The position numbers and the translations under genes were made by a program. A model generated the notes under the pieces. The model ran no database searches and was not told the DNA's origin. It saw only the letters and a program-made list of their open reading frames with translations. Source: Psammoneis japonica (lineage: Eukaryota). From it: DNA of 64,000 nucleotides. Positions within the stretch are counted from its first letter, which is position 1; every line of letters begins with the position of its first letter. Below are positions 30,886-54,603 of the stretch, one piece after another. The stretch spans positions 372,001 through 436,000 of the forward strand of contig QPGO01000049.1 in assembly GCA_008632985.1 (NCBI GenBank), written 5' to 3'.

Positions 30886-31292
30886 TCACACTGGTGCATT
30901 GTGGGTGTGATGATCCTGCACGCAGGAGTGAAGATGTTGCCAACAGGGAACAGCACAGTTCTGAGCACTTTGGGTTTGTTCTCTTGAAAAACTTGTTTGG
31001 CTTGCTGTTTGATGTGAAGCCACACAGTGCAAATCTTTGCACAGCATTGAGGGCAAATGTTGACTCTGCTGGCACCATCTTTAATGACATCCTCTTCTCA
31101 GTGTGACTTGAATTCTTTTGCAGAAAACTTTTGAAACAGTCATCATTGGCAGTCTCAAGTCCAGTGCCTTTCAAAGAAGCAGGCTGAGGAAAGGTGCGAC
31201 CTGTTTGCAATTCAACCACTTGTTCCCTTTTGCATGTGGCCTTGTCAATGTTGTAATTCACTCTGGTCATCAGACTGACACACTGCAGCATG

Positions 31293-32448
31293 ATGAGTGG
31301 AAAAGATCCGCATTGTCTCAGTCATGGCACGGGTGCTCTCAGTCATGCGTGTGGTGTCTCATCATTGACGCCGGGTTCAACGTGGATTCTACACAGGGTC
31401 AGAATTCTAAATTTTTGATCCCAGTCATCTTGAATCTTGTTGTCACTTGTTCACAATCCCTGGATTGAAGGAACTCATCCTGCCATGGCACGTGGTCTCT
31501 CTCTGCTCTGCCAGCAGAGGGCTCTAGTCCCACCATGAATTGTTCCAACAAGGCATCCATTGAGTCCTGCAAAGATTCACCTTTGAAGCAAAAACCAAGC
31601 GCCTGTCATCATCATGGTCTGGAAGAAATCAATGAAGACATGCAGCCAATCTTTCTGCCCGCCATCACTGGTGCATCAGGAGTGAGTCCTCAAAGGAGGA
31701 GAGAACCTGCGTGGTCATGTGTGGTGCTCATTTTGTTGTTGTTCATCGCTTCTTTGTTTTGCTGTGCATGAAAGATTTTGGAGGGTGCAGAGCCACGCGA
31801 GGGCACAGCTGATGTTTCCAGGAATGCAGGAGAACTTCAAGACATGGCCAAATCCAAGCAAGATGTGCCATGGCTTGAGAACAATGATTGCAATGTACAA
31901 GCAACGAAGGACATAAAGGCAGCACCAAATTGCAAGAAGAAGGCCAGCTCTGTGGACGTCGAGGTCGCAGACAATTCAGCTCGCAACCAGTGGCCAACAT
32001 TGCATGAACGGAAGGTGGCTGCAGCAATCAAAACAGACCAGAAGAAAAAGGTCAGGAATGCACGTTCAAGGGGCACAGAAGACAACAACGATGTGGGATC
32101 CATCTCGCTGTCTCCGCCGCAGAGGTCTTCATTGCCGGCGCACCAGGACCAGAACTCAGCAGCAGCTTTGCATGATTCGATGCAAGACCCCTGTCAACGC
32201 AAGGAGGGACCGCAGGCACAAGCACAAGGGTCAGTGCTCATGCCATTGTGGGTCCTGAAGCTCCCACAGATGAATCCACTCTCCATGATGACAGTCAAGA
32301 CGCAATCACGATTAACTCAGAACAAGCTCCACAGACGGTTGTCGCACACGCGGTCACCAATGAGGATGTGGCCAATGAAATCCGTGAAAAATTGCACTGC
32401 AAAATGAGACAAGAAGTGCTTGATCAAGCTGTCAATGCCAAAGCCGTG
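31293..32448 (+). pseudogene. Truncated, hypermutated duplicate of the promoter and 5' part of the beta-propeller gene at 52076-53232
   Basis: Collinear with 52076-53232. Differences are dominated by TA->TG/CA and CG->TG/CA; it is frameshifted and ends at ...VNAKAV. Confidence 0.9.
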
Positions 32449-33131
32449 CAACTGGCCACACCTTGCAGGCAGAGCTGTGATGTTGATTGCACCATGATTT
32501 TCGGACATGACAAGAACACCCAAAATTGTGTTCTTTAAATTGCCTGAAGAAATCTTGCATGTTGGCCAATGGACAGTGAGTGCACTTTTTAGAACAGTGT
32601 TTTGCAATTTGTTAGGTGTTGGCCGCAGGGCATGGTTGGGCAATAGGAGTAGAAAAAATGTCATAGAGAGTACATGCTTGTGTAGTTAGCACTAAAAAGA
32701 AAACACACGAGCGCGCAGTCTGGGGCGCAGCGCAGCGCAGCACCGGCGCTCACATCAGGAGCACAGGCGCTTGCACAGCATCGCAGTGAGCCGCACGCAC
32801 GTTGAAACTTGAAACGGCCGTTTCTCGTTTCTCCCGCACCACAAACATCATCAACACGGAGCACCTGCAACAATGGCCGTCGCCGCTGAAAACGAGCATT
32901 ATCGATGTTGTGTTGATACCATTGGACCTGCTGTTGTCAACCCAAAAACTGATTCATAATGAAAACAAATGAGAATATTCTCTTGAGCCGAAATGTGTTT
33001 CTTCATTCTCACATTATTCTCAGTGAGTGAATCAAATCACAAATCACTCCACGGTATTTTTTGGTTTTCTCAACTTCTTGTTCTCCTTTAATCTTTGTCC
33101 ATATTTCCATAGGAAAATGTCACATCATGCT

Positions 33132-33334
33132 GAGCGGCTCAAGTTGATGCAATATCATGCGGGCTGCTCAAGTTGATACCATTTCAAACGGGGCGGTTCA
33201 AGTGGATACCTACACCTTACTGGGTGACTCAAGCGGATACCAATGCCTTGCTGGGCAGCTCAAGTGGATACCTGCACCTTACTGGGTGACTCAAGAGGAT
33301 ACCAACACCTTACTGAGTGACTCAAGTGGATACC
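33132..33334. repeat. Minisatellite: seven degenerate ~30-32-bp units, consensus approx. GGGTGACTCAAGTGGATACCAACACCTTACT
   Basis: A (C/T)TCAAG..GAT core recurs seven times head-to-tail with no unique spacers. Confidence 0.85.
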
Positions 33335-34019
33335 ATTATTGAATATTATATGGAGTGGTCCAAGGGTGAGGAGTATTTTTCATTTTAAAATCTACAATCT
33401 ACCACTTTTGGGAAAGTCCCGATATAAAGGGCAGACGAGGTTGCTCTCGTCTCTAATAATTACGAGCAACTATACCGAGGTAGCTGACTGCAGCGGCGCC
33501 TTGGTAATTTTTTTCTGCAAGACGGCCTACGAGAGCCAAGGGGTTGCTCCCCGGCGAGACTGAGAGTGGTACCTCCAAGGAAGGGGGTGCCACTCGACGT
33601 GCTATGACCCGAATCTCAGTTAGATAGGGTTCGCCTGCCCTCAAAGGTGGTGATTGGTTGCTTTCAAGGAATGCAGTAGGATAGAAGGATAAAATAGCTG
33701 GATTCAATTGATCTACAGTACAGAATGGTTATCGAAATTCCTGGATGGTCATGCGGAGTAGGACGTCTAGACGCCTCTCCTCCTGTAGACGCTTATCCAT
33801 TTTCCACATCAAATGAACGGAACCATCAACCTTGCACTCTCTATCAACACTCTGTGCAAAGTGTCAGCCATGATTCTCAGCAAAACCCGTGACTTCTCTT
33901 CATAATCACACAAATGCATTCGTCGCAGCCGTCTCCGCCATGACGGCAATCAACAACAACGACGATATGACAGGGGATGACGCAGCGGCGGCGCACGGCG
34001 TCGAAGAGGAACCTGATCT

Positions 34020-35007
34020 GATAATTTCAAGCATGATATTGGTGACAAGACTCTCTTGGTGGATTTGGCCAATCTTACAAAGTTTGATGCGAGTGACAAC
34101 AAACTCTTTGGGGCCCTTCCTGTGGAGTGGCTGAGTTGCGAGAAGCTCGGTTTCCTGGTCCTTCACGGGAATGATTAGAATAGAAGTCTTCCGGCCATTC
34201 CCGAAGAAAACAATGCGCTTCTGCTCTTGGCGTTGCATGATAATAAAATTGAAGGTCCGATTCCCGATTCGATTTCAAGTCTCAGGCTGTTGCGCCACTT
34301 GAATTTGAGCTCCAATTCTCTTTCCGGTGACTTGCCTCTCTCGATGGGAGAAATGGAGGACCTAATTTATCTCTTTTTGGCTGAAAATGATTTCAATCGT
34401 GGACCTATCCCAGACTTTTTCCGTCCGCTGACAAATCTCACTGAGTTGTCATTGAAAAAGACAAGGCGAAACAGGCCAATTCCTGATTGGATTGGCACCG
34501 ACTTGAAAAAACTCCTTTTGCTGGATCTTGATAGTAATGACTTGACTGGTCCAATCCCAGGGAGCCTCGGAGAAATTAATACGTTGCTTTATTTTTTGCT
34601 CAACCACAACAAGTTGAACGACACGCTACCAGCTTCTATTCAAAGCCTCCCGAACCTACGTGAGTAGTGTTTTTGGTTGTTGTGGCTAGCCCCCTTGGTG
34701 ATTTGAATGCCGGGATGTGACTCACAAGTATCGTCATCTTCTTTCTACTCATAGGTCTTTTGTTGATTGAGCGGAACAACATGACAGGCTCTGTTGGAGG
34801 CCTCTGTAAAGGCACGTTCAGGAGCTAAGTGCCGACTGCGGTGGAGCCAGCGTTGAAGTAGATTGTTCCTGCTGTACATTATGTTGCGAGGATGGTGAGA
34901 CCTGCAACGATAACAAAATGCTTGCAAACTCGGACCCCAACTGGGAGAGCAGATTCAACCGAGTTGTGTGGGATTTCAGAAGTGAGCTGGACGATGTGTT
35001 TTAGTTA
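34020..35007 (+). pseudogene. 5'-truncated LRR receptor-like gene fragment, not TpA-depleted
   Basis: Plant-type LRRs (LHDNKIEGPIP, LNLSSNSLSGDLP, LDLDSNDLTGPIP); intron from about 34661; C-terminal ADCGG...VDCSCCTLCC. In-frame TAG near 34176 and no obvious 5' part. Confidence 0.7.
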
Positions 35008-36029
35008 TAACGAAGTATCTTGTAGATGCGCATACCTACATTTTAAATTAGTTGAAGGCGAACTGAATTTGTTAATGGACTATATGACGAAACCCAATTC
35101 AGCGAAAGGAGTGGTCATCAAAAATTCCTATCAGGAACGCGACTTGCACCATTTTCAGTCTTCAAACACCGTTCATCGTCACGGACAGTGGTCTCCTCGT
35201 GAAGTCGTCAAGCTTGCGGTTTTCCCGCTCGTTACAAACACAGCTACGGTACAACAGGGGCAAAAACAAGTTGTTCTAGTGCGACTATGCCCATGCCACC
35301 CTAGACTACGACAACAACTAATCCAGCACATCCATCTTGTGGATGCGTCAGGGAAAAAAGGACTAGACTTTCCATGCCTACAGGCTACTTCCTAGCATGC
35401 TCTCTACTTCTACTCTCTACTCTACTACTAGAGTAGAGAGTAGCTAACCTTACGGTACTTCTCTACTTCTACCCACTCTAATAGTGGCTATGACTCACTC
35501 GACTACCGCTGAATCAAGCGCGCGAACCTTGCGAGAAGCCGCCCGTGCGACCACCGATTTGGTCCCAAACTCCCGCGCGGGAGCAGCGGTCTCTGATCCT
35601 TCCATAGGAGTACAGTAGACAGGTCTACGCAGTTCTTAAGTACATGAGACAAACAGAGCGCAATGACTAGCATAAAGATGGTCTTTCATAGCGTCCTAAA
35701 TGATTTGCCAGTACAAACTTCACGTGAAGCTACAATCCACAACTCCCGCGCGGGACCCTGATTAGCTCACAAATTGGATTTTGTTCCTAAACAAAGTGGT
35801 CGCACGGGAGTACAATGATGGACCAAGATGGACCACTACCGAGGATTTCAACGTAGCCGTTTACGGTGGCAAATCGCAAAATGTACCGGGCGACGTTCAA
35901 TTTCTACGCGGTCTTTTTGCGGAGGACCAAAACGCGATCTGCTCGAGATCAATTCACTTTTCTCCTCACAACGCTCTCAAAAATCGAGAAACTACAAAAG
36001 TACACTCACTTCCTCTCAAGCCTTTCACC

Positions 36030-36521: not shown

Positions 36522-39510
36522 GCCCCGCCTCTTCGTTTAGAGGTTGGTTAGGACCCTCTATGGATATGGATTCGAGCGCGATCGGTACCCCGTGGATGGT
36601 GTCCCTTTTTGTAGTGGTGTGCTCATTGGTTCTCCGGTTGGAAACTGCCAGCACGGATCGGAGGTGATTTGTCACAACGTAACTCTTTTAGAACCGCAAT
36701 GAATAATGTGCTGTGTGTGACATGCTCGTTGCTCTTGTACTCTTGATGGCTTCGCCGCTTCGCTGTACAATAGTTACGATATTCTTACCTGTTGCGAGAC
36801 TCGTGGTTTCCTCTCAACACCGTCATCGCGTAGGCCTCAAAGCCATCAAATTCGTATGAGTCAGAAACATGTTTTTGCAATGATCATCGGTGTCACCATG
36901 CTAGTTTATGCATCATTCTTTTCAAGTTGAAAAGATTCATGAGTGCGGATGGGGTGCGTTTGGAGTTTGTTGGCGCAAGCACCCGTTTGCATGTCAAAAT
37001 GTCGCTGTCGTATCTATTCATAATTGAGCGAATCCTTTGAGAGTCCTGCCTTGATCAACTGGTTCAAGACCACTACCTCGTTCTATCGATTTGTCCCAAA
37101 GCTCTTTTACTACAGTTTTGACAATTCTTGGAATATTCCTAGCGACATGTACGACTGATCAAGACCGGCATGCCTGTTTTGCGGCGTAATCGAGTAAAGT
37201 CTTCATCTATCCACTCAAGTCATCTAGAGAGAGATAAGAGTATCGCTCCAGACCGTCTCTTGCGTTGTTATGAGCAGTATGATGTGTTGTCATTCCAACC
37301 AAGATTTTGTCAGTTCACAAAAAATCAAAAAATCAAAAATCAAAAATCAAAATCCTGCTGAATCTTTCTTGGGCTGACGGCCAGACGGCTGGATTCAAAA
37401 TTCAAAATCTTACACGAAAATGAATGTTCGCAAATGATCAGTCTCCCTCTTCTCCCCAACAACAACAAAAACGATCACACAAAAACAGACCCGTGACAAC
37501 GGCAAAGACAGTCTCCCACGATGATGCAAGAGACCCACAGCGAGTGGGTGGGAAGCTCTGGGCCTTCAGGGGCTTGTCCAGATGCAATGAATCGTCGACA
37601 TGATCAGCTGCCGCACCTGGAAGAGGCTCGGCATTGGGTGACGGGCAACAGACACAGAAACAACGGGACGAGACGAAGGCAAATCATCTTGGGTGGACTT
37701 GTAGCTGCTCTTGCTATTCTCATTGGTGTTTCCGTGCGTGTCTCCACAAGAGCCGATCGCAACAGCACTCACACCGAGAAACCACCAAACGAGCGGTGCC
37801 AATCGGTGCTCTCTTACTTGGATGGCTGTTCAGACCCGCAAAAACTCCGCACCAAGGGACCCCCGAATGCCGCGTCGTGCTGTGGATGGCAAACGATGAC
37901 CCCCTTCAATGCAACATTCCAGTCAACCCGCTCGAGCAGCACTTTCGCCAGAGGCATGTCCTCGTCCTCTTTTGCTGCCGCATGCCATGGGCGGAGAGCA
38001 ATGGAATGATCAGTTCAACTTTTTGAGAGACAGGAATGAGTGCTTTTGGCATGTCAGACAGGCGCGCAAAGATGCACATTGTGCACCTTCTGGAATGACA
38101 TGTGACGACAATCAAAAATTCGGACAATTGTCAATGGCAAGTTCTGGTGTGAATGAAGGAGAAGGATCCTAAGCCCGAGCGACTTGAGCTTCATTGCATC
38201 TTGCACTGTCAAGTTTGGGAAGCGATCTGTTTTCTCAAACCCGCCTTTTCCATTTCTTGATGTGCAACCGACAGAAGACAACAATTTGAGAGGAAAAATT
38301 CCATCGGAGCTTGGCCTTCTTACAAAGCTCAATTTCTTTTGGACACCGAACAATGACAACATTGCAGGCACCACACCAGATGAACTCCAAGAACTGACAG
38401 ACATGGATGCATTCAATGTGGACAACAACAAGCTGCATGGCACAATCCCAACTTGGATTGGCTCATGGAGCCAAGCAACAATGACAAGCTTGCAGCACAA
38501 CAAATTCTCATCCTCGCCACCCACGGAGTTGGGGCTCCCAACATTTATGATGAGACTTCAACTCAAGGCAATCAATTGACTGGCGCAGTTCCTCACAGAG
38601 TGAAAGGCATGAATGACTTGCAACGTCTGTTGCAGGAAGAAACAAGTTCAAGGGAGAAATTGAAACGTGGCTGCCATCAAATGCGGAAGAGCTGTCAGGT
38701 CTCACTTTGAACGACAACATGTTCAGTGGATTGCTTCCTTCAGCCCTGGGCAACCTCTCGTGCACGGCGCGACTGCATCTGGAACACAACTCATTCACCA
38801 GTGACCTTCTGCCTTGAATTCTCTCAAGCATCTTCAAGCTGTGTTTCTGCAGCACAACCAGTTTGAACAAAGTCTTGATGACAACTTTCATTTTATGAAA
38901 AGACAGACACTCCGCGTCATTGATGCCAGCACAAACAATTTCTGCAGAAAGTTGCTGCCAGAGTGGCTGTCACACAAGATGTTGAAAACCCTTGCTCTCC
39001 ACAATGTTTCTCTCAGTGGTGCACTTCCTGTTGATGTGGCCAAAAACACAGTGCTGGATGCCTGTCGTGACCAAAAACACAGTGCTGGAATGCCCGTCGT
39101 TGAACGCGAACGCGATTGAACATGGCATCCCCGCGTCGATGTCAAACCTCAAGTCCCTCTTTCACCTGGATCTGAGCACCAACGAGTTTTGAATGGTGAC
39201 CTGCCAATGTCGCTCGGGGATGTGGTGGAGCTCACTTGTTTGTCTGTTGCTGAAAACAACACAGATGCTGGTCCATTGGTGCCACAATTCTTGGAGGCAC
39301 CGACGAACTTGAAAGAGCTTTCATTGAGACAAACGAATGTCAATGGACCGATTCCTGCTTGGTTGAGGAAATTCAAAGCTCTTTCCCTTCTGGATCTTGG
39401 CCGTGATGATTTTGCAGGTGAGTTCCCTGCAAGTTTGGGCAAGCTCCCTCTCGAGCACTTGCTGCTCAACCACAATCATCTCAACGGCACCCTGCCACAG
39501 TCGATCCAAG

Positions 39511-42500
39511 TGCAGTGTGCCTCGCTGCTGGACAACACGGCCAGACCGTGCATGAGCCTCTTGTGCATGGCAACGCAGTGTTGTCAACGTGCACCTGGGG
39601 AAGCACGACCACAGGAGGGCGTGGCTCTGGGTCTCAGGCAATTCCAGAAGGATGCCAAGAGAGCATCCATGTGAAGCACACTGGCCCGTCATCTGGCCCA
39701 CGATGGCAGTGTGATTCCACACGATGACATCACTCGTGCATGGCGCATGATGGCTTGATTCGCACGATCCACAATGCGAGTGCACGATCGATTTGATGTG
39801 ATCCAAATGCGAACGAACAGGGATTTGACAAGATTCCCTGTTCGCACGATCCCACTTTTCTCTGCTCCAAACTGGCTCACAATTTTCACAATGACAAAGT
39901 CACAACACATCTTCTTTTCAGCACCTGGTGCATGCACAGGGCACAGTGGTGTTGCTCCCGCATGTTGTGCAAGGTGACGAAATCTGCAGAAACGAAACTG
40001 CGAAATGTTGGCAGGACCGACAAATCTCAAAACAACCATGAAGAAGCGGATTGAGCCGCCGACTCCGTTCGCACAGCCGGAGAAGAAAGAGCTGCAGCAG
40101 GGCAAGTGCCAGACATTCAAACTGCGTGACAACCCCGCTGATCCGGACAGTCCAACGCACGAGATGGGCATCCCGCACCTTTCTGCGGCTGCATGCGAGA
40201 CACTCCCAATCTTTCTGCGCAACGTGGATCGCGTGCACGAAGGAAAAAACATGACGACCGGGCCAGCGAAATTTGCCCTCATGCGCGACCCACTGCAGGG
40301 CGATGCTCTGACGTCATTCAATGATGCCGCTGACAAGCAGGCATCCCAAACCAATGCCACGTGTGCAGCATGCGTCGCGAAGCTAAAGGAAAGTGTCTTC
40401 CCACATGGGGCAGTGCCATTGCAGAAGCGTTGTCTGAGGCGCTTCATGTGCAAGCCCGCAGAGGTTTCTGCTCGTGACTGCGTCACGAGGGCTGTTGAAA
40501 TTGACAGCTGTGTCTCCAAGTTTCCACCCGTGACGGAGGATGGAGAAGCACCGGCGCCATCACCTGACGACAAACTGCGCGATGTGTTTGAGTGCGGTGT
40601 GCTGAGCGCATGGCAGAAGTTCATGACGCCACAGAATTTTGACCCGTTGGCGCATGCTGTTGCCGAATTTGTGCAGTTCTGCGAGCGCATCGAGCAGGTC
40701 GAGCTTGCCGAAGGTAACCTGGACCAACATGCTAAGATTCCACGCAAGCGGGGACGTAGAACGGACAATCTTGAGTCGTTGATCACGTGCCCTGTGTGTG
40801 CACTGGGCGCTGAAAAGAACATGTGTTGCGACTTTGTCGTTGTAAAAATTGTGAGCCAGTTTAGAGTGGAGAAAGTGGGATCGTGCGAACAGGGAATCTT
40901 GCCAAATCCCTGTTCGTTCGCATTGTGGATCGTGCGAATCAAGCCATCACGCGCTGTGCACGAGTGATGTCATCGTGTGGAATCACGCTGCCATCGTGGG
41001 CCAGACGACGGGCCAGTGTGCTTCACACGGATGCTCTCTTGGCATCCTTCTGGAATTGCCTGAGACCTGGAGCCACGCCCTCCTGTGGTCGTGCTTCCCA
41101 GGTGCATGTTGACAACACTGCGTTGCCACGCACAAGAGGCTCACACACGGTCTCGCCGTGTTGTCCAGCAGCGAGGCATGCTGCACACTCCCCCATGATC
41201 AGGGCCGTCAAGTGACAGGATGTCTTGCTGGTGACAGGGTGCAATCTGCCGCAGATTGCATGCATCCATCAGCGCTCCGTTCTGGGTGCGCAACACGCCG
41301 TTGTCACACACACGGACAACTCTGGCGGGTCCTGCACAGCTGTCAGAACTGTGTTTAGAGGATTGTTCCTGTCTGACAAGCACCAATTGCCCTGCGGCAC
41401 ATTGATGCTCCTTGCGTTTCTGATTTTCACGCTTGTTGTTCAAGTGGACAAGCTTCTGCTTTCTGGTTTCCATGTGCTTCCACTTGGCACGATGGGCAAC
41501 AGACAAAACCGCATCACGTCCGAAGACCAATTGCGCGGGACTTGCACGCGTGGTCGCATGTGCCGCAGCTCTGACAGCGAAGGCTGCTGAGGAGAGGATG
41601 CCACTCCATGGGTCATCTTCGTCCAGCTCCACATCCTGCACTGAAAAGGAACGCACCATGTCACCAAGTGTCTGGCGCACATGCTCCACTGTGGCATTCG
41701 CCTGTGGATTCCGTTCACTTGTGGGTTTCTTCAAAATCCCACAGTCATTTTTAATCATCTGGCCAAATTCTGCCACAAATTCTGTCCCACGGTCATGTGC
41801 CACCTGGGTTGGCCACGGATGTCTGCACAGCCACGTTTGTTCCACGACGTTTGCCACGACGTCTGCGCGTTTCACAGACACTTCTTCAATCTCGAACCAC
41901 CCGGTTGCTGGGTCAATCATTGTGACTGCCCATGATTGCAAAGTGTCCTTTCTGCGTCTTTGAATTTTGTGTGGCCCCATCACATCTGTGCACAGAGTCT
42001 CCCATGGAATTGTCTCTGCGACCTTTTCTGGCAGCTTCCCATGACGCTGCATTCGGCGTTTTGTCTTCTGGCATCGATCGCACTTGACGCACGTAGAATG
42101 CACAGTGGACCTCATGCCAGGCCAGCAGAAGTGCTGGGCAACAGATGTTTCCGCACGTGTCTCACCTGGATGACACAGTGTCTCGTGGCACCATTCAGCC
42201 AGCGGAACCTGCAATGACTGTGGTGCTGCGATTTTGTCCTTGTGACAGATTGACTGTCGTGATGCCCCTCCCCCACGACATGCACGAATGGAGCAGTCGG
42301 ACGAGTCCTTGGCTCGTGAGAGCAGGCGCTTGTCCTTTTGTTGTGCTTTTTGAATGCGCTTGAAGCCAACAGGCAGAGATGCCTCATCTTGCACGTCTGC
42401 ATTAAAAGCTTCATGCAAAGGACGACTCGATGGAGTGTCTTTTACATCCGGATTGGCCTCGGAAGGCAAGCTGGGTGCTGGTCGAAGGCGACTGAGAGCG

Positions 42501-45500
42501 TCAGCGACTGGGTTGTGGGTGCCCTTGACATGGCGTAATTTGGGACCGCATTCTTCGCATGTCAACCGCCAGCGCATGACGCGCTCGGCATTGAATGCTT
42601 TGTGCATGAGATTTTTATGATCAGCACATGCAATCACACGATGACCAAGGAGAACTGTTCGAAATTCTTTCAACGTCTCCACAATGGCGAGCAATTCTCT
42701 CTCCGTTGTTGTGTGATTTAATTGCGCACTGTTGAGCTTTCTGCTGTAGAAGGTGACAGGTTTATCATCTTGGGATGTGACTGCTCCCAATTGACATTTA
42801 GAGGCATCGGCATGCATCTCAAAGGGTTTGTTAAAATCAGGATGTGACAACAAAACATCATCCGATGTCACCCGTTTGATGGTTTCGAACGCCTCGTCTT
42901 CAACGGACGTCCACTCCCACTTGACAGTCTCGCTTGCGAGTCGTGTCAGCGGAGCCAAGACTTCAGAACGTCTGATCCACGTGTCACGGTGGCAGTTCAC
43001 CATGCCAATGAATGAGCGCAGGTCGTGTTCATTGGTTGGGGTCGCGATTCGCTTGGTGGCGTCGACTTTGTTGGGTGTTGGTCGCACTCTGTCTCTGTTG
43101 ACCAAGCAACCCAAGCATTCTAATTGGGTTTGACAGAAGTGAGATTTAGTTGCGTCAACTTTTAGTCCTGCTTTCTGGACCCTCAATGAAGCTTCTTCAA
43201 GTTTGTTGAGGTGATCTTCACAGGTGCCTTTCGTCATGACGAGAAGGTCATCTAAGTGTGTTCAAACGAACGACAGATCTTCAAATGAGCCTGACATGCA
43301 CTCTTGGGAAATGTCTGGCGAATCACATGAAAGGGTTTGTTAAAATCAGGATGTGATGATAAAACATCATCCGATGTCACCCGTTTGACGGTTTCGAACG
43401 CCTCGTCTTCAACGGACGTCCACTCCCACTTGACAGTCTCACTTGCGAGTCGTGTCAGCGGAGCCAAGACTTCAGAACGTCTGATCCACGTGTCACGGCA
43501 GCAGTTCACCATGCCAACAAATGAGCGCAGGTCGCGTTCATTGGTTGGGGTCATGATTCGCTCAATGGCGTCGACTTTGTTGGGCATTGGTCATGTTCCG
43601 TCTCTGTTGACCAGATGACCCAAGCACTCTAATTGGGTTTGACAGAAGTGAGATTTGGTTGTGCCAACTTTTGGTCCTGCTTTCTGGACCCTCAACAAAA
43701 CTTCTTCAAGTTTGTTGAGGTGATCTTCATGGGTGCCTTTCGTGCACACGATCCACGTTGCGTAGAAAGATTAGGAGTGTCACGCATGCAGCCGCAGAAA
43801 GGTGCGGAATGCCCATCTCGTGCGTTGGACTGTCCGGATCAGTGGGGTTGTTGCGCAGTTTGAACGTCTGGTGCTCGCCCTGCTGTGGCTCTTTCTTCTC
43901 CGGCCGTGCGAACGGAATCGGCGGCTTAATCCGCTTCTTCATGGTCGTTTTAAGATTTGTCGGTCCTGCCAACATTTCGCAGTTTCGTTTCTGCAGATTT
44001 CGTCACCTCGCACAACATGCGGGAGCAATGTTGCTGTGCCCCATGTGTGTGCCAGGCGCTGAAAAGAAGATGTGTTGCGACTTTGTCGTTATAAAAATTG
44101 TGAGCTAGTTTAGAGCAGAGAAAGTGGGATCGTGCGAATGGGGAATCTTGCCAAATCCCCATTCGTTTGCATTGTGGATCATGCGAATCAAGCCATCACG
44201 CGCCATGCACGAGTGATGTCATCGTGTGGAATCACACCACCATCGTGGGCCAGACGACGGGCTAGTGTGCTTCACACGGATGCTCTCTTAGCATCCTTCT
44301 GGAATTGCCCAAGACCTGGAGCCACGCCCTCCTGTGGTCGTGCTTCCCAGGTGCGTGTTGACAATGCTACGTTGCCATGCACAAGAGGCTCACACACGGC
44401 CTCGCCGTGTTGTCCAGTGGCGAGGCATGCTGCACACGACCCAACGGAACACCCAGAAGTCGTGCATGCCACACGGGACCAACTGTGGACATCATGCGGA
44501 GGATTGCCGTCAGCTCAAGCACCACGTGAAACGTGTCAAGACTGGACATTCCAATGACGGAGGCAGCAAGCCCAATGCAAAACCTCGGAATGAGGAAGAC
44601 ATCAATGCTCTCATCGGATCAAAGGTCGAGGAGTTCTTTGCCAATGCTCAGAAAAAGCGCAAGGCACGTGAGGAGGAGCTCAATCACTTCCGCGACCTCA
44701 ACTTGAGTGATTCTGAAGATTCGGACACCTGAGAAGGGGGCCGACACAATGCAGGCAGTTTTAACACATTGGATGAATGCATGAATGAACAACTGAATTA
44801 CCGTCATACACGTGTTGTGGGCCAATCCCGCAAATGAGTTAAAAAGACTCATCTTGCTCCAATCTTGTTTGCAGCTGTGAACACCAAACATGGCAAGGGC
44901 AAGACTCAAACCATTGAGGCACTGCCAGATGGTGGCGCCAGCAGTGCTCTGCTCGACAGTCGACACTGCAAGCATCTGCAAAGCCATTCAATGGCTGAGA
45001 CAAACTGGACCATGGTGGCAGGCTCGTTCAGTGCGTCCAACGACTGCACCGTTAAATTTCGGTTGCCAGAATTGTCCGAAACTGCAGAACTTAAACATGC
45101 CGTCCACGTGCACAACGGAAAGTTGGGCAAGCACGACATGATCATTGGACGTGACATTCTGGAGACACAAGGCATTGATGTTGTCTTCTCCAAGCAGATG
45201 ATGGAGTGGCCATTGGTCAATGGAGAAGTGCCAATGAGGCACGTAGATGCTGCGGTAGAAACCTCCTTCTATCTTCAAGATCCAGAAGCCTCATCTTCGG
45301 AAACCGACCGGATTTCACGCATTTTGGACGCCAAGCACGCGCCGGCCTGCCTCGAGGACATAACGCGAGGGGCAATGGGACTTTCTACAGTTCAACAAAA
45401 CGACCTTTTGGCACTGTTGAAACGCCATGAGTCCTTGTTTGATGGGACATTGGGAGAATGGAAGGGAGAACCCTGCCACATCCAACTCAAGGAGGGTGCA

Positions 45501-48462
45501 GAACCGTGCCACACTCATCCACACAAAGTGCCTCGTGCGTGCGAAGCTACGCTGTGTAAAGAAGTAGAACGCCCAGCGCGCATCGGTGTTCTCAAATGCG
45601 TCAACCAATCCCAATGGGCAGCTCCATCATTTGTCATGCCGAAGAAAGACTTGACGGTGCGCTTTGTCAATGATTTCAGAGAGCTGAATGAACGGATCAA
45701 GCGATTGCCTTGTCCAATTCCTCACATCCAAGACATGCTGCTTGAGCTTGAAGACTTTGTGTGGGCTGCATCGCTGGATTTAAATGTGGGCTGTTGTCAC
45801 ATCCGGTTGGATGCTGATGGCAAGAAGCTCTGCATGCTCATCTTCCCGTGGGGCAAGTGTGAGATGCAGGCATTGCCCATGGGATCATGTGGTTCACCAG
45901 ACATTTCCCAAGAATGCATGTCAGGCTCATTTGAAGATCTGTCGTTCGTTCGAACGTGCTTAGATGACCTTCTCGTTGTGACGAAAGGCACCTGTGAAGA
46001 TCACCTCAACAAACTTGAAGAAGTTTCATTGAGGGTCCAGAAAGCAGGACTAAAAGTTAACGCAACTAAATCTCACTTCTGTCAAACCCAATTAGAATGC
46101 TTGGGTTGCTTGGTCAACAGAGACAGAACATGACCAACACCCAACAAAGTCGACGCCACCAAGCGAATCGCGACCCCAACCAATGAACACGACCTGCGCT
46201 CATTCATTGGCATGGTGAACTGCCACCGTGACACGTGGATTAGACGTTCGGAAGTCTTGGCTCCGCTGACACGACTTGTGAGCGAGACTGTCAAGTGGGA
46301 GTGGATGTCCGTTGAAGACGAGGCGTTCGAAACCGTTGAACGGGTGATGTCGGATGATGTTTCATTGTCACATCCTGATTTTAACAAACCCTTTGAGACA
46401 CATGCCGATGCCTCTAAATGTCAATTGGGAGCAGTTGTGTCCCAAGACAATGTACCTGTCGCCTTTTACAGCAGAAAGCTCAGTGGTGTGCAATTAAATT
46501 GTGCAACAACGGAGAGAGAATTGCTCGCCATTGTGGAGACGTTGAAAGAATTTCGAACGATTCTCCTTGGTCATCGTGTGCTTGCATGTGCTGATCATAA
46601 AAATCTCACGTACAAAGCATTCAATGCCGAGCGCGTTATGCGCTGGCGGTTGACATGCGAAGAATGCGGTCCCAAATTACGCTGTGTTGAGGGTGCCCAC
46701 AACCTGGTCGCTGACGCTCTTGGTCGCCTTTGGCTGGCACCCAGTTTGCCTTCCGAGGCCAATCCAGATGTAAAAGACACTCCATCGAGTCGTCCTTTAC
46801 ATGAAGCCTTTAATGCAGATGCGCAAGACGATGCATCTCTGCCTGTTAGCTTCAAGCGCATTCAAAAAGAACAACAAAAGGACAAGTGCCTGCTCTCACG
46901 AGCCAAGGACTCGTCCGACTGCTCCATTCGCGCGTGTCGTGGGGGAGGGTCATCACGACAGTTAATCTGTCATAAGGACAAAATCGCAGCACCACAGTCA
47001 TTGCAGATCCTGCTGGCTGAATGGCACCACGAGACACTGTGTCATCCAGGTGAGACACGTGCAGAAACATCTGTTGCCCAGCACTTCTGCTGGCCCAGCA
47101 TGAGGTCTGTGGTGCATTCTACGTGCGTCAAGTGCGATCGATGCCAGAAGACAAAACGCCGAACGCAGCATTGTGGGAAGCCACCAGAAAAGGTCGCCGA
47201 GATAATTCCATGGGAGACTCCATGCACAGATGTGACAGGGCCATGTAAAATTCAAAGACGCGGAAAGGACACTTTGCAATTGTGGGCAGTCACAATGATT
47301 GACCCAGCAACTGGGTGGTTCGAGATTGAAGAAGTGTCTGCAAAACGCGCAGACGTCGCAGCAAACGTCGTGGAACAAACGTGGCTGTGCAGATGTCCGT
47401 GGCCAACCCAGGTGGTTTATGACCGTGGGACAGAATTTATGGCAGAATTTAGCCAGACGATTAAAAATGACTGTGGGATTTTGAAGAAACCCACAAGCAA
47501 GCAGAATCCACAGGCGAATGCCACAGTGGAACGTGCACACCAGACACTTGGTGACATGGCACGTTCCTTTTCAGTGCAGGACATGGAACTGGACAAAGAT
47601 GACCCATGGAGTGGCATCCTCTCCGCAGTGGCCTTCGCTGTTAGAGCTGCGGCACATGCGACCACGCATGCAAGTCCCATGCAATTGGTCTTCGGACGCG
47701 ATGCGGTTTTGTCTGTTGCCCATCATGCCAAGTGGAAGCACACAGAAACCAGAAAAACAGAAGCTTGTCCACTTAAATGACAAGCGTGAAAATCAGAAAC
47801 GCAAGGAGCACCAATGTGCCGCAGGGCAGTTGGCACTTGTCAAACAGGAACAATCCTCTAAATGCGGTTCTGACAGCCATGCAGGACCCGCCAGAGTTGT
47901 CCGTGTGTGTGACAACAGCACGTTGCATGTCCAGAACGGAGCGCTGACAGATGCGTGCAATCTACGGCAGATTGCACCCTGTCACCAGTGAGACATCCTG
48001 TCACTTGATGGCCCTGATCATGGGGGAGTGTGCAGTGTGCCTCGCTGCTGGACAACACGGCGAGACCGTGCATGAGCCTCTTGTGCATGGCAACGCAGTG
48101 TTGTTAACGCGCACCTGGGAAGCACGACCACAGGAGGGCGTGGCTCTAGGTCTTGGGCAATTCCAGAAGGATGCCAAGAGAGCATCCGTGTGAAGCACAC
48201 TAGCCCGTCGTCTGGCCCACGATGGCAGTGTGATTCCACACGATGACATCACTCGTGCATGGCGCGTGATGGCTTGATTCGCACGATCCACAATGCGAAC
48301 GCACGATCGATTTGATGCGATCCAAATGCGAACGAATGGGGATTTGACAAGATTCCCCATTTGCACGATCCCACTTTTCTCTGCTCTAAACTGGCTCATA
48401 ATTTTCACAACGACAAAGTCGCAACACATCTTCTTTTCAGCGCCTGGTGCACACATGGGGCA
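39511..48462 (+). mobile_element. Full-length Ty3/gypsy LTR retrotransposon (outer element), inactivated
   Basis: LTRs 39511-39943 and 48031-48462 (TG...CA); 4-bp TSD CAAG (39507-39510, 48463-48466); PPT GGGGGAG before the 3' LTR. gag ~40005-40787 plus 44439-44732 (CxxHG...H....C knuckle). pol ~44865-47990 in PR-RT-RH-IN order (ALPDGGAS; CLDD; ADASKCQLG; HPGETR...CDRC; DRGTEF). Stop at 46131, frameshift near 47755. Confidence 0.95.
40788..44434 (-). mobile_element. Internally deleted copy of the same gypsy family nested antisense inside gag of the outer element
   Basis: LTRs 40788-41185 and 44037-44434, both lacking the same ~34-bp segment; 4-bp TSD CACG (40784-40787, 44435-44438). A short gag start (43975-~43735) is fused to the RT end; ~400 bp of RT/RH is duplicated; RH-IN runs to about 41230. 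Confidence 0.93.
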
Positions 48463-49220
48463 CAAGATCTGTCCACGCTCGGCAAGTCGTCCATGTGAGA
48501 TCCTTGTTTTGCAGGTTTTGCTTGAGCATTTCTTACACACAAGTGTTTGTTCCTTTTTGCAGAGGTTGCATTCTTGAGTGAGAATGACATCGCGGGCAGC
48601 GTTGGATCACTTTGCAAGGGAACAAGCCTTGCCAACAATCTAGAAGAGTTGAGCGCGGATTGCGGTGGAGAGACACCCAAAGTCACTTGCCCCTGCTGCA
48701 CGGTTTGCTGTCAGGATGGAACAGACACTTGTGATTCCACCAAGACACCAGCCAATCACTGGGTTTCCACTTGCAATCGAGGCAAGTGGGACTTTCAAAA
48801 TGATTTGAATGAAATTTTTTAGTCTGAGCATGAAAAGATGCAGACAGTGTGAATGCACGCCATGAATCATCCCAGTGCACAAGTTGAGACCTTTGCACAG
48901 TGATGGCTGCCACCAAGTGTCCAATGGATGCCTTGCATCATGGCTCAGCTCACCTCTGCAGCAGCTCTCTGGCTGGCAGAGAGCACCATGGACTTTGAGA
49001 AACCTGAAGAGCAGGGAGGGCGGTGAAGTCATGGCAGCACCGTTGCACTTCTTTTGCAGAGCTCAAGAAAATGTCAGTGCTGACCTGACTTAGAAATGAC
49101 AAGTGCGCAAGCTCTTTGCCTCAACACCGTGTTGCATCTCTCAACATCTCATCACAACCGGTGGTTGCAAAGCAAGAAACAAGTGGAGCAAGTTGACAGT
49201 GACTGAAAGATCACCAGAAC

Positions 49221-50810
49221 ATGTCATCAACAGGAGGAGGAGATGCATCGTCGACACAAGAAGCGATGAATTTGTTGGCCGAGTTGCTTCAGGAGCATCA
49301 GCAGCACAAACAAATGCTCGTGGATCTCAAGGCCAAAGAACGTGCGGCAACTCTAGTTTCTGTCCCGATGCTTCTGAATCAGGTTTGCAAGGCGCTGCGT
49401 GCCATGGGTTTGCTGGTTCGATTGTTTGGAGAAAATCTGGCCAATGTTCGTGATTGACTTCAACATGGGTTGGCCAAACAACAAGTGCGCAGTGAAAGTG
49501 AAGGTGCACAACAGCAAGAAGCTGCTGCCAAAACTTGGGTCGTGGAGGAGGAAGAAGGGCAGGTTACAAAATGCATGAGAGCATCTCAAGAACTTGTCAA
49601 GGCAAGGCAGAAAATTGTGCTGTTCTCTTTGGAACTGTCCAAGAGTTGTCTTGCCAAGGAACGGATGATTTGTCCAGGGGCAAAGCAAAAGCGTGCACAG
49701 AAACAGCTGGAGACAACAACTGAAAATGACGCAGGCATTGCAGAACTTGATCGAGTCAATGAGGGCTGTCTGAAGCTTCACAAACCACAATGTCAAGTGA
49801 CATTGCAGAGATTGCAACATGGGGATGAACGACCGCTTTCTGCCATTTGTGCCACCTCTGATGCTTGCCCAGTTGCCACGGGTGGTTGGAGCGGGTCGGT
49901 CAAGTTGTGGGATGGTTCGTCTTTGCAGATGAGTTTGATTGGTCACACATCCATGGCTCATGAGGATCAAATCACAGGTGTGGCCATTGCGTCGTCATCG
50001 CAGTCGAACAACCAGCCAGCGGCAACAGCATCCATTGACTTGACAGGGAAGTTGTTCAAGATTGCAGAGAATGACATTCACATGGAGACTGAAGATGATG
50101 ACAAGAACAAAAACAATGACGATGGCACATCATTGCTCTGCCACAGTTTTGAAGAGGTTGCTCATCTCAAGGGTCACGCAGTGCGCTTGTGCAAGGTGGC
50201 ATTTCATCCCACCCATGCATGTGTTGGGACCTGCAGCTGTGACCACAAGTGTCATCTCTGGGATGTGGAAACTTCAAAGATGTTGCTGCTTCAAGATGGA
50301 CACTGGAAGGAGATGTGTGGCATTGGTTTCCATCCCGATGGGTCTCTGTGCACCGCTGCTGATTTAGGAGGTGTCATTCAAGTTTGGGACTTGCGAACCG
50401 GCAAGTCGTCGCAAGTTGATTGGTGACTTTTTGGGTCACACCAAGCGGGTGCTTTGCTCTGACTTTTCACCCAATGGCTTTCATTTGGCAATGGCCGGTG
50501 ACGATGGGACCATCAAGGTGTGGGATTCACGAAAGAGAAAGAAACTGTCATTTGCAAACATTCCTGCTCATTCCAATCTAATGTCTCAGCTACGATGCAA
50601 TGTTTGCTCCGGAGGGGAGTCTCCAGTGTCTGTGAGTTTTGATGGGACAGCCAAAGTGTGTGGTCCGCGCGAGACCACAAGATGCTTTCCTCTCTCTGAG
50701 GACACAAGGGCAAGGCAATGGGAATTTATGTTGTGGGAGCAAGCACTGGAGCCATTGTCACCAGTGGATGTGACAAGACCATCAAGTTTTGGAAGCAGCG
50801 GGAACACACA
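49221..50810 (+). pseudogene. PRP4: Hypermutated copy of the U4/U6 snRNP protein Prp4 gene (SFM domain plus WD40)
   Basis: VSVPMLLNQVCKALRAMGLLVRLFGENLANVRD* (PRP4/SFM motif, Arg->TGA); GDERPLS; LKGHAVRLCKVAFHP; LLLQDGHWKEMCGIGFHPDGSL; FSPNGFHLAMAGDDGTIKVWD; IPAHSNLMS. Stops and frameshifts; TA almost absent. Confidence 0.85.
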
Positions 50811-51233
50811 GAATCTGGAAATCACTTGATTTCCATGCTTGGCTCCTTCGCCATTCGTGCACATGAGGGAGGCACAAAAAAAGGCAGAGGACAAGAATTG
50901 GAAAAAATCCACCCACACACTCTCTAAAGATTGTGGCACTTCCTGTGCTTCTTTCACAACATCTCCTTCCGACATGTTCAATGTGCTCCATGGCACGAGA
51001 TGCAGAAAGGAGGAAATTGCATTTTCCAACTGCTCTCTGCTGTGGAGAGACTCTCTCTCTCTCTCTCTCTCTCTCTAGAGCAGAGAGAGCAGAGATGTCA
51101 TGGAGAAGCATGAGCAAATTTTCCAAAACTGTTGCACACAAATGACGATGCAAAGCATGTGACAAACCAACAGATGGACACATGTGTGTCTCTGGTGAGA
51201 TTCCGGGTGCCGGATTCCATTGATCTCTCCCAC

Positions 51234-52075
51234 AAGAATCAAGATGGCATCTGCACGCAAGCCCATCTCCCAAACAACTGCAAGAAAGTACAAGATGAAC
51301 AATGATTGGATCAAGCCGTCCAAAGCCAAGTGCAGACCTCCATCAATCAGACCTGCGACCAAGTCAAAGAGGTGCAATGCAAACAGATGAACTCTCCCTC
51401 TTCACCCAACACATGATCAAGGCATCAGCTCAATGCAAAAGCCTGGACAGCACAGCAAAAAGATTGATGGAACAATGCACCATGAAATGCTGAATGAGTG
51501 TTCTCCAGAACCCACAACCATTGGCTTGAATGATGGCTCTCCTCAAGGACCAAGCTCCCCCCACGTCAACATGACAGCACAGTGGGCGACCTTGCTCTGT
51601 CAGCTCTTTGACTCACCTTTGGTGGAAGCCCAAATCCAAATGTTTGGGGTGAGCCTGACACATCTGAAACAATCTGCTGTGACATTGCCAATGACATCCT
51701 CCACAGCAGTGCATGGGACCCCTCATGCCAGCAAAAACCCAGTGCTGCAAAACCACACTCCACAACCAAAATTTGAAAGCCCCAACATCACTTTTGCCAC
51801 AGCATGAGAGCTTCAAGCAGATGCACCAGTCAACAATGACAAGAGGAAGGCAGATGTGTGCATTGTGACACCATTGTGTGGTCACACATTGCACACACAG
51901 GTGGCAACAACATCAAACAAGGAGAAGGAGCAGTCTTGTCAGGCATGCACACCATTGGAAGACCTGTGCATCCAAAAAAAGACTTGCCATGCAACAATCT
52001 GATGTGCCTCATAAAGCCAATGGCAGAATTTTGCCTTGAAGAACTCAAGATCATTCTCGGTTGGCTCCTGGACAC
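51234..52075 (+). mobile_element. Second, deleted fragment of the Ngaro-like element
   Basis: 51234-51580 matches ~26238-26600 and joins directly to sequence matching ~27760-28245 (junction atgacagcac|agtgggcgac). Confidence 0.85.
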
Positions 52076-52318
52076 ATGAGTGGAAAAGATCCGCACTGTT
52101 TCAGTCGTGGCGCGGGTGCTATTACTGCAGTCGTACGTGCGGTGTCTCATCATTGACACCGGGTTCAACGTGGATTCTACACGGGGTCAGAATTCTAAAT
52201 TTTTGATCCCAGTCATCTTGAATCTCGTTGTCACTTGTTCACAATCCCCGGATTGAAGGAACTCATCCCGCCATGGTAGTCTCTCTCTACTCTACCGGTA
52301 GAGGGCTCTAGTCCCACC

Positions 52319-54603
52319 ATGAATCGTTCCAACAAGGCATCCATGACGTCGTACACAGATTCGCTTTTGAAGCGAAAACCAAGCGCCTATCGTCGTCATG
52401 GTCTAGAAGAAATCAATGAAGACATTCAGCCAATCTTTCCACCCGCCGTCGCCAGCGCATCTGGAGTGAGTCCTCAAAGGAGGAGAGAACCTGTGTGGTA
52501 ATGTATGCTGCTCATTTTGTTGTTGTTCATCGCTTCTTTGTTTTGTTGGCATGAAAGATTTCGGAGGGTGCAGAGCCACGCGAGGGCACAGCTGATGTTT
52601 CCAGGAACGCGGGAATACTTCAAGACACAACCGAATCCAAGCGAGATGCACCGTGGCTTGATTTTCACGAGAACAATACTCGCAACGTACAAGCAACGAA
52701 GGATATGAAGGTAGCACCGAATTACAAGAAGAAGGCCAGCTCCGCGGACGTCGAGGTTGTAGACAATGCAGTTCGCAACCAGCGGCCAACATTGTATGAA
52801 CGGAAGGTAGCTGCAGCAATCGAAACCGACAAGAAGAAAAAGGTCAGGAATGCACGTTCAAGGGGCACGGAAGACAATAATGATGTAGGATCCATGTCGC
52901 TGTCTCCGCCGCAGAGGTCTTCATTGTCGACGCACCAGAACTCAGCAGTAACTTTGCATGAATTCGACACAAGACCACCGCCGCAAGGAGGGACCGCAGG
53001 CTCAAGCACAAGGGTCGGTGCTCATGCCATTGCGGGTCCTGAAGCTCCCACGGATGAATCCACTCTCCGGGACGACAGTCAAGACGCAATCACGATTAAC
53101 TCAGAACAAGCTCCACAGACGGTTGTCGCACACGCGGTTACCAATGAGGATATGGCCAATGAAATCCGTGAAGAATTGCGCTACGAAATAAGACAAGAAG
53201 TGCTTGATCAAGCCGTCAATGCCGAAGCTGTGAACGTTGTAGTGTCTACCGGGAATGATGGAAATCCGTCTGATAGTGACAAAGCGGCTGAAGAAGGGCG
53301 TTTTTGGAAACGCAAATCATTTATCATTTCTTCAATCATCATACTCATTGCAATTGTGGGGGCAGTGGTTGGGGCGGTGCTTGGCAGCAGTGGTGGTAGC
53401 GGAGAGTCACCATCCGCGACGGTATCTCCTACATTTAGTCCGGCTCCCACATCTACTCCCGCACCTTCGCAAAGTCCAGCAACCGTAACCGTCTTACAAA
53501 CGATACAGGGTGCTGAGGAGGGGAGCAGGTTTGGTGGAGATGTTGCTGTCTCGAGAGACGGCGGCACAATTGCAGTGGGTGCCAACCAGGGCAACACAGT
53601 AACTGCCTATAGACGGAGTGATTCTCAGTGGAATCAAATCGGTCAAGTGCTTCGTGGCAGCGGCGGAGAGTTCGGGCACCGGGTGCATATAAATAGTGAT
53701 GGTACCAGAGTCGCTGTTGGTGCAAGGGTGTTTGGAGAAGATAAAGCCGGCCAAGTCCAGGCATTTGAGCTCAAACAGCCCGAGGAAGTCGAGTGGTTGC
53801 CACAGGGTGGACCAATCAATGGTAGTGAACCTGGTGATGAATTTGGATGGGAGGTGGCCGTATCCGATAGCGGAGGGACAATGGCTGTGACAGCCAGACT
53901 TGGTGATCCTTCCGGCAGGCTGGACGCGGGATACGTGCGGGTTTACATTTGGAGGAGCAATTGGACACAGCTTGGTCAGGACCTGGAGGGCGAGATCGCA
54001 CTTGACTCATTCGGTCGTTCTGTAGCGCTTGATGCTACCGGGCGTCGAGTCGCCGTAGGTATCATACATGCCGGAGGTAGCTTTGGGAGTGTTCAGGTTT
54101 TTGACTACGTTGGTGAGAGTTGGATCCAGGTGGGCCAAGACATAAATGGAGAGGAGTTTGAAGCTTGGCACGGAACGAGCGTTGCACTTTCCAAAGATGG
54201 CTCCGTTTTAGCCATCGGAGCCGGTGGAAGCGACGCTGCCGGGACCAACTCCGGGATGGTCCGAGTCTTTGAACTTTCTGGAAGCAGGTGGGTTCAGCGT
54301 GGCTCGAATATCCTTGGGCGAGCACCTTTAGGCAAGCTTGGTGGCGGACACTTGAGCTTGTCTGATGATGGAAACCTTGTTGCTGCTGGAGCTCAAAACC
54401 TACAAAAAGAAATCGGCGCCGCTTACATCTTTCGGTACGACGATGCTGTTTCCGATTGGGTGCAGACTGCTGAGGTCACCGGAGACAAAGAGAAAGACGA
54501 TTTTGGTGAGTCGATTTCTCTCTCAGGCGATGGATCGGTTCTTGCTGTAGGGGCACCGGACAATGGAAATGGATACGTTCGGGTGTTCCAGGTAGAATAT
54601 TGA
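52319..54603 (+). CDS. Intact single-pass membrane protein with an FG-GAP-like beta-propeller; one 5' intron ending at about 52557
   Basis: Exon 1 MNRSNKAS... splices into the 632-aa ORF: VGAHAI motif, TM IISSIIILIAIVGAVVGAVLG, PT linker, repeats FGGDVAVSRDGGTIAVGA, FGRSVALDATGRRVAVG and FGESISLSGDGSVLAVGAP. Normal TA and Tyr content. Confidence 0.9.

Follow-up and report, generated by a model that had tools for sequence, protein, structure and literature searches.

What removes the dinucleotide TpA (hereafter TA) from whole blocks of a diatom contig and spares the genes between them? The question is raised by a 64,000-nucleotide stretch of Psammoneis japonica contig QPGO01000049.1 (assembly GCA_008632985.1, positions 372,001 to 436,000), which we call the window; all window statistics below describe this one 64-kb stretch. 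Two segments, copy A (31293-32448, + strand) and copy B (52076-53232, + strand), are duplicates of each other, with ~1.15 kb that can be aligned pairwise, and copy A has lost most of its TA. We regard it as very probable that a real, in-situ and strand-symmetric hypermutation of TpA to TpG or CpA has struck discrete, sharply bounded, silenced stretches of this DNA. The mutated stretches are of three kinds, long terminal repeat (LTR) retrotransposons, repeats that could not be classified, and host gene copies that are dead; host genes with normal TA were spared.

An earlier reading made from the letters alone (the sequence-only reading) had claimed this duplication and an intact gene at the later copy. 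The duplication was confirmed, with the six strings quoted for it all found at the positions given, and the gene is a 632-aa open reading frame (ORF; 52705-54603, + strand) that matches Pfam FG-GAP_2 (E = 1.3e-16). Its product has a low-complexity N-terminus, a hydrophobic stretch that is probably membrane-spanning, and FG-GAP repeats, with 1.7% tyrosine (Tyr). Copy B is the unmutated partner, consisting of ~630 nt of upstream sequence and the first 176 codons of this gene, and its TA and CG content is normal. Copy A is a dead, truncated and hypermutated duplicate of the same upstream region and 176 codons, ending past the equivalent of codon 176. It belongs to a patchy duplication that also carries repeat sequence, as 26251-26601 resembles 51245-51580 and 28144-28244 resembles 51974-52074.

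The core of the alignment (columns 109-1279) has 1031 identical columns, 29 gap columns and 111 substitutions, divided into 93 transitions and 18 transversions. Copy B contains 31 TA and copy A only 6. Read in copy A, the TA of copy B became TG in 15 cases and CA in 8, while 5 were kept and 3 had other fates. The 75 CG of copy B became CA (24) or TG (17), with 31 kept and 3 changed otherwise. In the opposite direction, 172 TG or CA of copy B yielded just 1 TA and 5 CG in copy A. The statements that most TA (23 of 31) and many CG (41 of 75) had turned into TG or CA thus hold. When the substitutions were tabulated by dinucleotide, as the same reading had suggested, bases differed at 26/62 positions in TA, 44/151 in CG and 35/916 elsewhere (Fisher p against the other bases 7e-18 for TA and 7e-20 for CG). 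Both products, 15 TG and 8 CA, are present in copy A, so both strands were hit. Their order along the copy is unclustered (35 runs against 33 expected, runs test, p = 0.74), which indicates single, strand-random hits rather than processive one-strand tracts and agrees with the strand symmetry that had been proposed.

An outgroup for the direction of change is provided by 8.7 kb of nested or inverted Ty3/Gypsy copies at 39978-48664, in which Pfam recognises RVT_1, RNase H and integrase domains (lowest E 1e-27). Tyrosine is encoded only by TAY codons (Y, pyrimidine; R, purine), so that conversion of TA to TG or CA must give cysteine (Cys) or histidine (His) at Tyr codons. We defined a conserved Tyr column as one with Tyr in at least 70% of 40 Gypsy homologues. 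Cys or His replaces the conserved Tyr at 20/21 such columns in the RNase H-integrase ORF of copy 1 (41141-43237, - strand; 698 aa, Tyr 0.1%), at 10/10 in the reverse-transcriptase ORF of copy 2 (44991-46133, + strand) and at 12/14 in the RNase H-integrase ORF of copy 2 (46212-47780, + strand). Over the three ORFs, 3 of 45 columns kept Tyr, 30 read Cys and 12 read His. The reverse-transcriptase ORF reads CLDD where the homologue consensus is YIDD, a position that we take to be the catalytic YxDD motif of reverse transcriptases. Most other classes of conserved residues were retained at 80-100%. Lower values (25-75%) were found for Ile, Thr, Lys, Asn and in places Val and Met, and the replacements there were mostly Ile to Val, Thr or Met, Val to Ala, Thr to Ala, Lys to Glu and Asn to Asp, as expected from TA hits within or across codons.

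Amino acid composition follows the same trend. In the Gypsy ORFs of the window, Tyr makes up 0.1-0.6% of residues, Cys 4-5% and His about 4%, and host genes in the window have 1.6-3.3% Tyr. Among the matches listed, all 120 of 120 homologous Gypsy polyproteins have 2.95-4.9% Tyr (median 3.9%), with medians of 1.3% Cys and 2.6% His. The replacement of conserved Tyr by Cys or His relative to homologues points to elements that were once normal and were then mutated, not to an evolved avoidance of TA. Judged from these alignments, the Gypsy outgroup fixes the direction of change as TA to TG or CA. In an alignment-based search of metagenomes, 71 of 73 Gypsy-related loci had a TA observed/expected ratio (O/E) of 0.57-1.06, and a metagenome scan with a single Gypsy protein as query gave 44 pattern matches, of which 0 were confirmed. 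Two of the metagenome contigs have lower TA. One of 1073 nt (L037; TA O/E 0.29, TG/CA 1.75) reads His or Cys at 5/7 conserved Tyr columns, and one of 1044 nt (L052; TA O/E 0.27, TG/CA about 1.5) is too frameshifted for its Tyr columns to be judged. These may be hypermutated elements from another source and are a weak lead to wider occurrence.

The Gypsy region also separates TA loss from CpG decay. Its TA O/E is 0.09-0.36 while its CG O/E is still 0.8-1.0, so TA was erased there ahead of CpG decay and the two processes are separable. Between the two Gypsy copies, 153 of 1871 aligned positions differ, of which 76 lie in 38 adjacent TG<->CA doublets, 15 are TA against TG or CA, 35 are CG against TG or CA, and the remaining 27 (1.4%) fall outside these contexts. 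Two independent, opposite-strand hits on one ancestral TA leave a TG<->CA doublet, and by this token the two copies were hit independently. At the 14 conserved Tyr mutated in both copies, the product was the same in 8 and different in 6, where independence predicts ~8 identical products, assuming Cys in about 70% of hits. If the 1871 nt once held ~105 TA (2 x 38 + 15 + 14), the estimated loss of these ancestral TA is about 86% in one copy and about 73% in the other, with ~15% of CG decayed per copy and a divergence of 1.4% outside pyrimidine-purine (YpR) steps. From these figures we infer, rather than measure, that TA loss would have exceeded background roughly a hundredfold and CpG decay about tenfold.

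A tandem pair of host genes (56952-58070 and 58088-59362, the second kinase-like) is 81% identical, with normal TA and CG and 2 TG<->CA doublets among 227 substitutions. Either duplication alone draws no mutator, or these genes are too diverged, or they are protected.

TA loss depends on the flanking bases. Normal DNA of the window contains 383 RTAY, 685 mixed and 184 YTAR sites. Surviving TA number 4, 31 and 33 in these classes in the depleted domains (chi-square p = 1e-13 versus normal DNA) and 3, 38 and 49 in the Gypsy region (p = 1e-22). ATAT is absent among the survivors, and TTAA, CTAA/TTAG and CTAG are enriched. In the Gypsy pairs, the ratio of TA/TA to TA/mutated to doublet sites is 0:1:12 for RTAY, 4:7:22 for mixed flanks and 10:14:8 for YTAR, corresponding to a per-copy TA loss of ~0.98, ~0.9 and ~0.6. 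Loss is therefore graded by flank, RTAY > mixed > YTAR. An additive per-strand model, in which an A is mutated about 4-5 times faster before a pyrimidine than before a purine, fits these per-copy figures and agrees both with the Cys:His ratio of 30:12 and with the TAY-directed product in 16 of 22 polarised mixed-flank events. A strict rule that only the A of 5'-TAY is hit was rejected, as TG<->CA doublets occur in all flanks (12 RxxY, 22 mixed, 8 YxxR). Over-correction by very-short-patch (Vsr-type) repair would turn CTAG into CCAG or CTGG, with loss centred on CTAG or CTWGG. It was rejected too, since CTAG is over-represented among surviving TA (11.8% versus 3.7% in normal DNA).

The signature extends well beyond the A/B pair. 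The sequence-only reading had located it correctly in that pair and understated its reach, as about half of the window carries it: TA O/E is below 0.25 in 292 of 636 overlapping 500-nt windows (46%). In 1-kb profiles, depleted blocks have TA O/E 0.01-0.1, CG O/E 0.06-0.3 and TG/CA O/E 1.8-1.9, and the intervening gene-bearing DNA has TA O/E of about 0.5-0.7 and CG O/E of about 1. A two-state model on YpR steps called seven sharp-edged depleted domains with a sum of 23,111 nt. From normal to depleted DNA, TA falls from 3.86% to 0.31% of dinucleotides and CG from 5.67% to 1.50%, TG plus CA rises from 15.0% to 22.3%, and the share of all YpR steps is 24.5% versus 24.1%. This mass balance is better explained by conversion than by a composition that differed from the outset. 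GC content is about equal (0.481 in normal, 0.486 in depleted DNA), because the AT to GC and GC to AT fluxes cancel.

The largest domain (23833-32611) holds copy A and has repeats in common with 51245-52074. It contains 29 TA in 8779 nt (TA O/E 0.05, CG O/E 0.20), and 20 of the 21 ORFs scanned in it had no Pfam match, the sole match being sub-threshold. Its + strand has 1088 CA versus 909 TG and 2492 A versus 2092 T, a skew that may be inherited from the ancestral sequence or may stem from a strand bias of the process in this domain. On the side of locus B lies the depleted domain 48666-52082, whose end all but coincides with the start of copy B: depletion ceases at 52082, the end of the repeat and the start of A/B homology at 52076 both lie within about 10 nt of this edge, and the sequence is normal from 52092. 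This domain contains a frameshifted WD40 (Prp19-like) pseudogene at 49458-50826, with Pfam WD40 matches in two different frames (E = 1.7e-14 and 3.4e-10) and 0.0% Tyr in ORF 49575-50426. Its sequence suggests a duplicate, now dead, of a gene for an essential splicing factor. A further depleted stretch at 37999-39976 holds leucine-rich repeat (LRR) gene remnants at 38157-38576 and 39120-39671.

Are the bases themselves real? In a public run (X1, platform not on record), contigs built from exact 31-mers match copy A with 2 differences over 301 nt and 0 over 275 nt, at a k-mer depth of 50-68, and B-like contigs have a depth of 56-62. A 305-nt contig with one difference spans the block edge near 32611. 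Exact 31-mer contigs at a depth of 50-68 imply that the reads are accurate, and the equal depth implies that A and B are both present in one genome. The X1 contigs thus argue against a base-calling artefact, short of independent proof. In a smaller run of the same sample (X2), the duplicated stretch 31462-32448 is covered by B-like contigs only, with none matching copy A. Should X2 be a transcriptome, B would be expressed and A silent, but as the kind of this run is not on record, nothing is drawn from it.

How might such a pattern arise? A:T changes to G:C at either base pair of the TA palindrome, and we propose that the adenine of 5'-TA (better 5'-TAY) in DNA is deaminated to hypoxanthine and then copied as G. 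We give this chemistry, adenine deamination in DNA, about an even chance of being right. An element would become a target through its silent or methylated chromatin, and not through duplication of its sequence as such. The effect would be genome defence, with elements killed through Tyr to Cys or His changes plus other missense changes. The loss of CpG to TpG or CpA in the same blocks would be ordinary deamination of 5-methylcytosine (5mC), a separate and slower process. That a process distinct from CpG decay erases TpA had been claimed from the sequence, and the claim is supported by the A/B asymmetry, the Gypsy Tyr columns (42/45), the mass balance and the independent Gypsy hits.

Several points weigh against this proposal. 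Targeting by chromatin or methylation is something we infer, and copy A could have been mutated instead as cargo of a mobile element. For the window data, deamination of A and modification of the paired T make the same prediction, and the enzymes that might be responsible are candidates. Doublets in every flank class make the strand-level TAY rule merely a preference, and the choice of His or Cys at Tyr codons had no significant dependence on the preceding base (Fisher p = 0.73). The rates derive by comparison from two repeat pairs in one 64-kb window, and X1 may be the assembly's own sample, in which case it is not independent confirmation.

Among the rival explanations, the closest in outcome to adenine deamination is a modified thymine. 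Should the thymine in TpA of silenced DNA be modified, to 5-hydroxymethyluracil or 5-formyluracil by a TET/JBP-type enzyme or otherwise, it would mispair with G and become C on either strand. The predicted result is identical, a strand-symmetric change of TA to CA or TG with palindromic flank dependence. There is also chemical precedent, as 5-formyluracil mispairs with G and dinoflagellates carry 5-hydroxymethyluracil preferentially at TpA. However, no thymine-modifying system in diatoms was met in the literature covered, and the excess of Cys over His (30 versus 12) fits either model. We consider thymine modification unlikely, yet the strongest of the rivals. Slightly behind it stands repeat-induced targeting, in which the chemistry is unchanged and homology, not chromatin, selects the target, so that duplication itself triggers the mutator. 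All mutated DNA of the window is indeed repeated or duplicate-like, including the Gypsy copies, copy A, the shared repeats and the WD40 and LRR remnants. Against this, partner B was spared, with at most 1 TA hit, and the hypermutated block beside it does not spill over into the A/B homology, whose start at 52076 lies within about 10 nt of the block's end. The tandem host pair at 81% identity is unmutated, and a stretch of 15-30x k-mer depth (32722-33500) has normal TA. Moreover, the main target in the chlorarachniophyte Bigelowiella natans, where the same signature has been described, was single-copy (bioRxiv 10.64898/2026.01.13.699255).

The elements might instead have arrived already mutated, if RNA or complementary DNA (cDNA) intermediates of retrotransposition were edited by an ADAR-like enzyme (A to I on double-stranded RNA) or an APOBEC-like enzyme on cDNA. 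The clearest targets are LTR retrotransposons, their copies carry independent hits, and block edges match element edges, all of which would suit such editing. Yet editing of one template would yield one product, whereas the hits are strand-random and unclustered (p = 0.74), and copy A as well as the WD40 and LRR remnants come from the host rather than from retroelements. The B. natans report also describes changes that arose in situ in integrated DNA (bioRxiv 10.64898/2026.01.13.699255). We therefore find intermediate editing improbable. An artefact seems more improbable still. A palindromic modified base at TpA, misread by the sequencer or polisher on each strand, would yield random TG or CA in the consensus although the true sequence is still TA. 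But the exact 31-mer contigs of X1 reproduce copy A at a depth of about 50-68x, with 0-2 mismatches in 275-301 nt, conversion is near complete over kilobases with GC and YpR totals that balance as for real substitutions, and CpG decay, a real process, follows the same blocks. Least credible of all is that the elements always avoided TA, for example by selection to escape a TA-directed nuclease or RNA decay. TA is under-represented even in host genes (O/E about 0.57), as such avoidance would have it. A host gene fragment, however, lost TA after its duplication, catalytic and conserved Tyr were destroyed, which selection for function would not permit, and 71/73 related metagenome Gypsy loci have TA O/E 0.57-1.06.

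The sequence-only reading knew of no description of this process, but one exists. Of 302 nuclear mutations that the preprint by Mettrop et al. reports for mutation-accumulation lines of B. natans, a rhizarian, 231 fell into two integrated viral regions; 230 of these 231 were A to G or T to C, and all such changes were at TpA (bioRxiv 10.64898/2026.01.13.699255). The rate there was about 1000 times background, and the authors, who propose an ADAT2-like adenosine deaminase, also found 124 clusters that are poor in TpA, rich in CpA+TpG and enriched in domains of reverse transcriptase and transposase (bioRxiv 10.64898/2026.01.13.699255). Both cases have A to G and T to C changes confined to TpA, TpG or CpA as product by strand, and discrete regions of foreign or mobile origin. 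The rate lies far above background there and, judged by comparison, would do so here. The window likewise has its signature in sharp domains with Gypsy reverse transcriptase, RNase H and integrase, and the dead host copies widen the range of targets. The differences lie in targets (an inserted nucleocytoplasmic large DNA virus and virophage there; Gypsy elements, unclassified repeats and dead host gene copies here), in degree (partial depletion, Rho TpA 0.45, there; O/E 0.03-0.07 with roughly half of the window affected here) and in lineage (a rhizarian there, a diatom here). The evidence differs too, being real-time mutation accumulation there and comparative only here. The available text of the preprint mentions neither CpG, trinucleotide or flanking context nor diatoms, whereas here we found CpG decay and a preference of RTAY over YTAR. 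Literature searches for diatoms with TpA or TA dinucleotide or hypermutation, and for A-to-G genome defence, returned no diatom report and the B. natans preprint as the sole description. Priority for the signature is thus with the 2026 preprint, and the window is a further case of a recently recognised process, not a categorically new one.

Fungal repeat-induced point mutation (RIP) shares with the present case that it is a mutational genome defence and ruins coding sequences through transitions in one dinucleotide context. In RIP, a duplication is mutated in both its copies; here partner B and the tandem host pair are unmutated. RIP changes C to T at CpA and so creates TpA (PMC3318451). Here TpA is destroyed and CpA and TpG are created (TA O/E 0.03-0.07, TG/CA O/E 1.8-1.9). 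RIP was rejected because the direction is opposite, in the A/B pair as in the Gypsy Tyr columns, and because one copy of the pair is spared. The label 'reverse RIP' given by the sequence-only reading is therefore apt for the chemistry, which is opposite to that of RIP, and not for the targeting, which does not look homology-induced with partner B spared and the tandem host pair untouched. Decay of CpG through 5mC, with methylation itself presumed, would account for one half of the pattern, the change of CG to TG or CA, and for why this is restricted to silenced repeats, where old blocks have CG O/E 0.17-0.34. As the sole cause it was rejected, as it cannot alter TA, and the Gypsy copies lost TA with CG O/E still at 0.8-1.0.

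APOBEC3 and ADAR resemble the proposed activity as deaminases that drive context-dependent transition hypermutation against mobile elements. For ADAR, the B. natans preprint cites a preference for U on the 5' side (bioRxiv 10.64898/2026.01.13.699255). Both enzymes differ in acting on single-stranded cDNA or double-stranded RNA with strand-biased tracts, and the hits here are strand-random and include host DNA that is not retroelement-derived. The natural substrate of TadA and ADAT2/3 is A34 after the invariant U33, i.e., a 5'-UA context, and early TadA-derived adenine base editors preferred YAC. The preference for TA (better TAY) in the window fits this 5'-UA context, although natural activity of these enzymes on double-stranded chromosomal DNA is not established.

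In its broadest form, our proposal is that diatoms may have a mutator dedicated to genome defence, directed against silent chromatin or whole elements, that would convert 5'-TA (best RTAY) to TG or CA in double-stranded chromosomal DNA. A newly silenced retrotransposon or dead gene copy would be inactivated before it reached ~1-2% neutral divergence, ~10x faster than by CpG decay, and the enzyme would be a natural, context-specific A:T to G:C editor of double-stranded DNA. We see the case for this form as evenly poised. If true, the occurrence of the signature in both a diatom and a rhizarian would mean that the system is ancient across the SAR (stramenopile, alveolate and rhizarian) supergroup or has evolved repeatedly.

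As genome defence, A:T to G:C hypermutation has one prior report, the 2026 preprint on one rhizarian alga. A second case would mean that the process is not peculiar to one species and that LTR retrotransposons and dead host genes are attacked besides viral inserts. Repeat pairs offer a way to measure its speed. The RTAY over YTAR preference constrains the responsible enzyme, and a natural editor of adenine (or thymine) in double-stranded DNA would be of interest to both genome defence and base editing. Composition statistics are affected as well, as GC stays flat while dinucleotide content is extreme.

Gene annotation is another area of concern. Long ORFs persist inside the depleted blocks (e.g., 19315-21055, 11259-12134, 27842-28642 and 39692-40969), reaching 426 aa from stop to stop, with 0-0.6% Tyr and 4-10% Cys. 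Their persistence is due to the erasure of TA, which deletes TAA and TAG and leaves TGA as the only stop. With these stops and all Tyr codons erased, hypermutated junk keeps long ORFs that gene callers would take for Cys/His-rich, Tyr-less proteins. A Pfam scan of 74 ORFs in depleted or neighbouring domains left 67 without a match, so most blocks stay unclassified. The 7 ORFs with any match comprise one MAPEG match below the cut-off, one weak PII-like, three LRR and two WD40 matches.

Other features of the window include the remaining depleted domains, at 2050-3850 (TA O/E 0.06, CG O/E 0.31), 10542-12191 (0.07 and 0.25), 18394-21168 (0.04 and 0.21) and 61596-63188 (0.03 and 0.17). The weak MAPEG-like remnant lies at 1924-2496 (Pfam E = 1.2e-4; 22.7 bits, below the cut-off of 23.4). 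A bestrophin-like ORF at 308-1153 has its best named relatives in Seminavis robusta (48% identity) and Amphora coffeaeformis (44%). Lastly, the stretch at 32722-33500, whose k-mer depth in X1 is 15-30x that of its neighbours, is multi-copy yet not depleted, and it encloses a 31-nt tandem repeat at 33134-33335.

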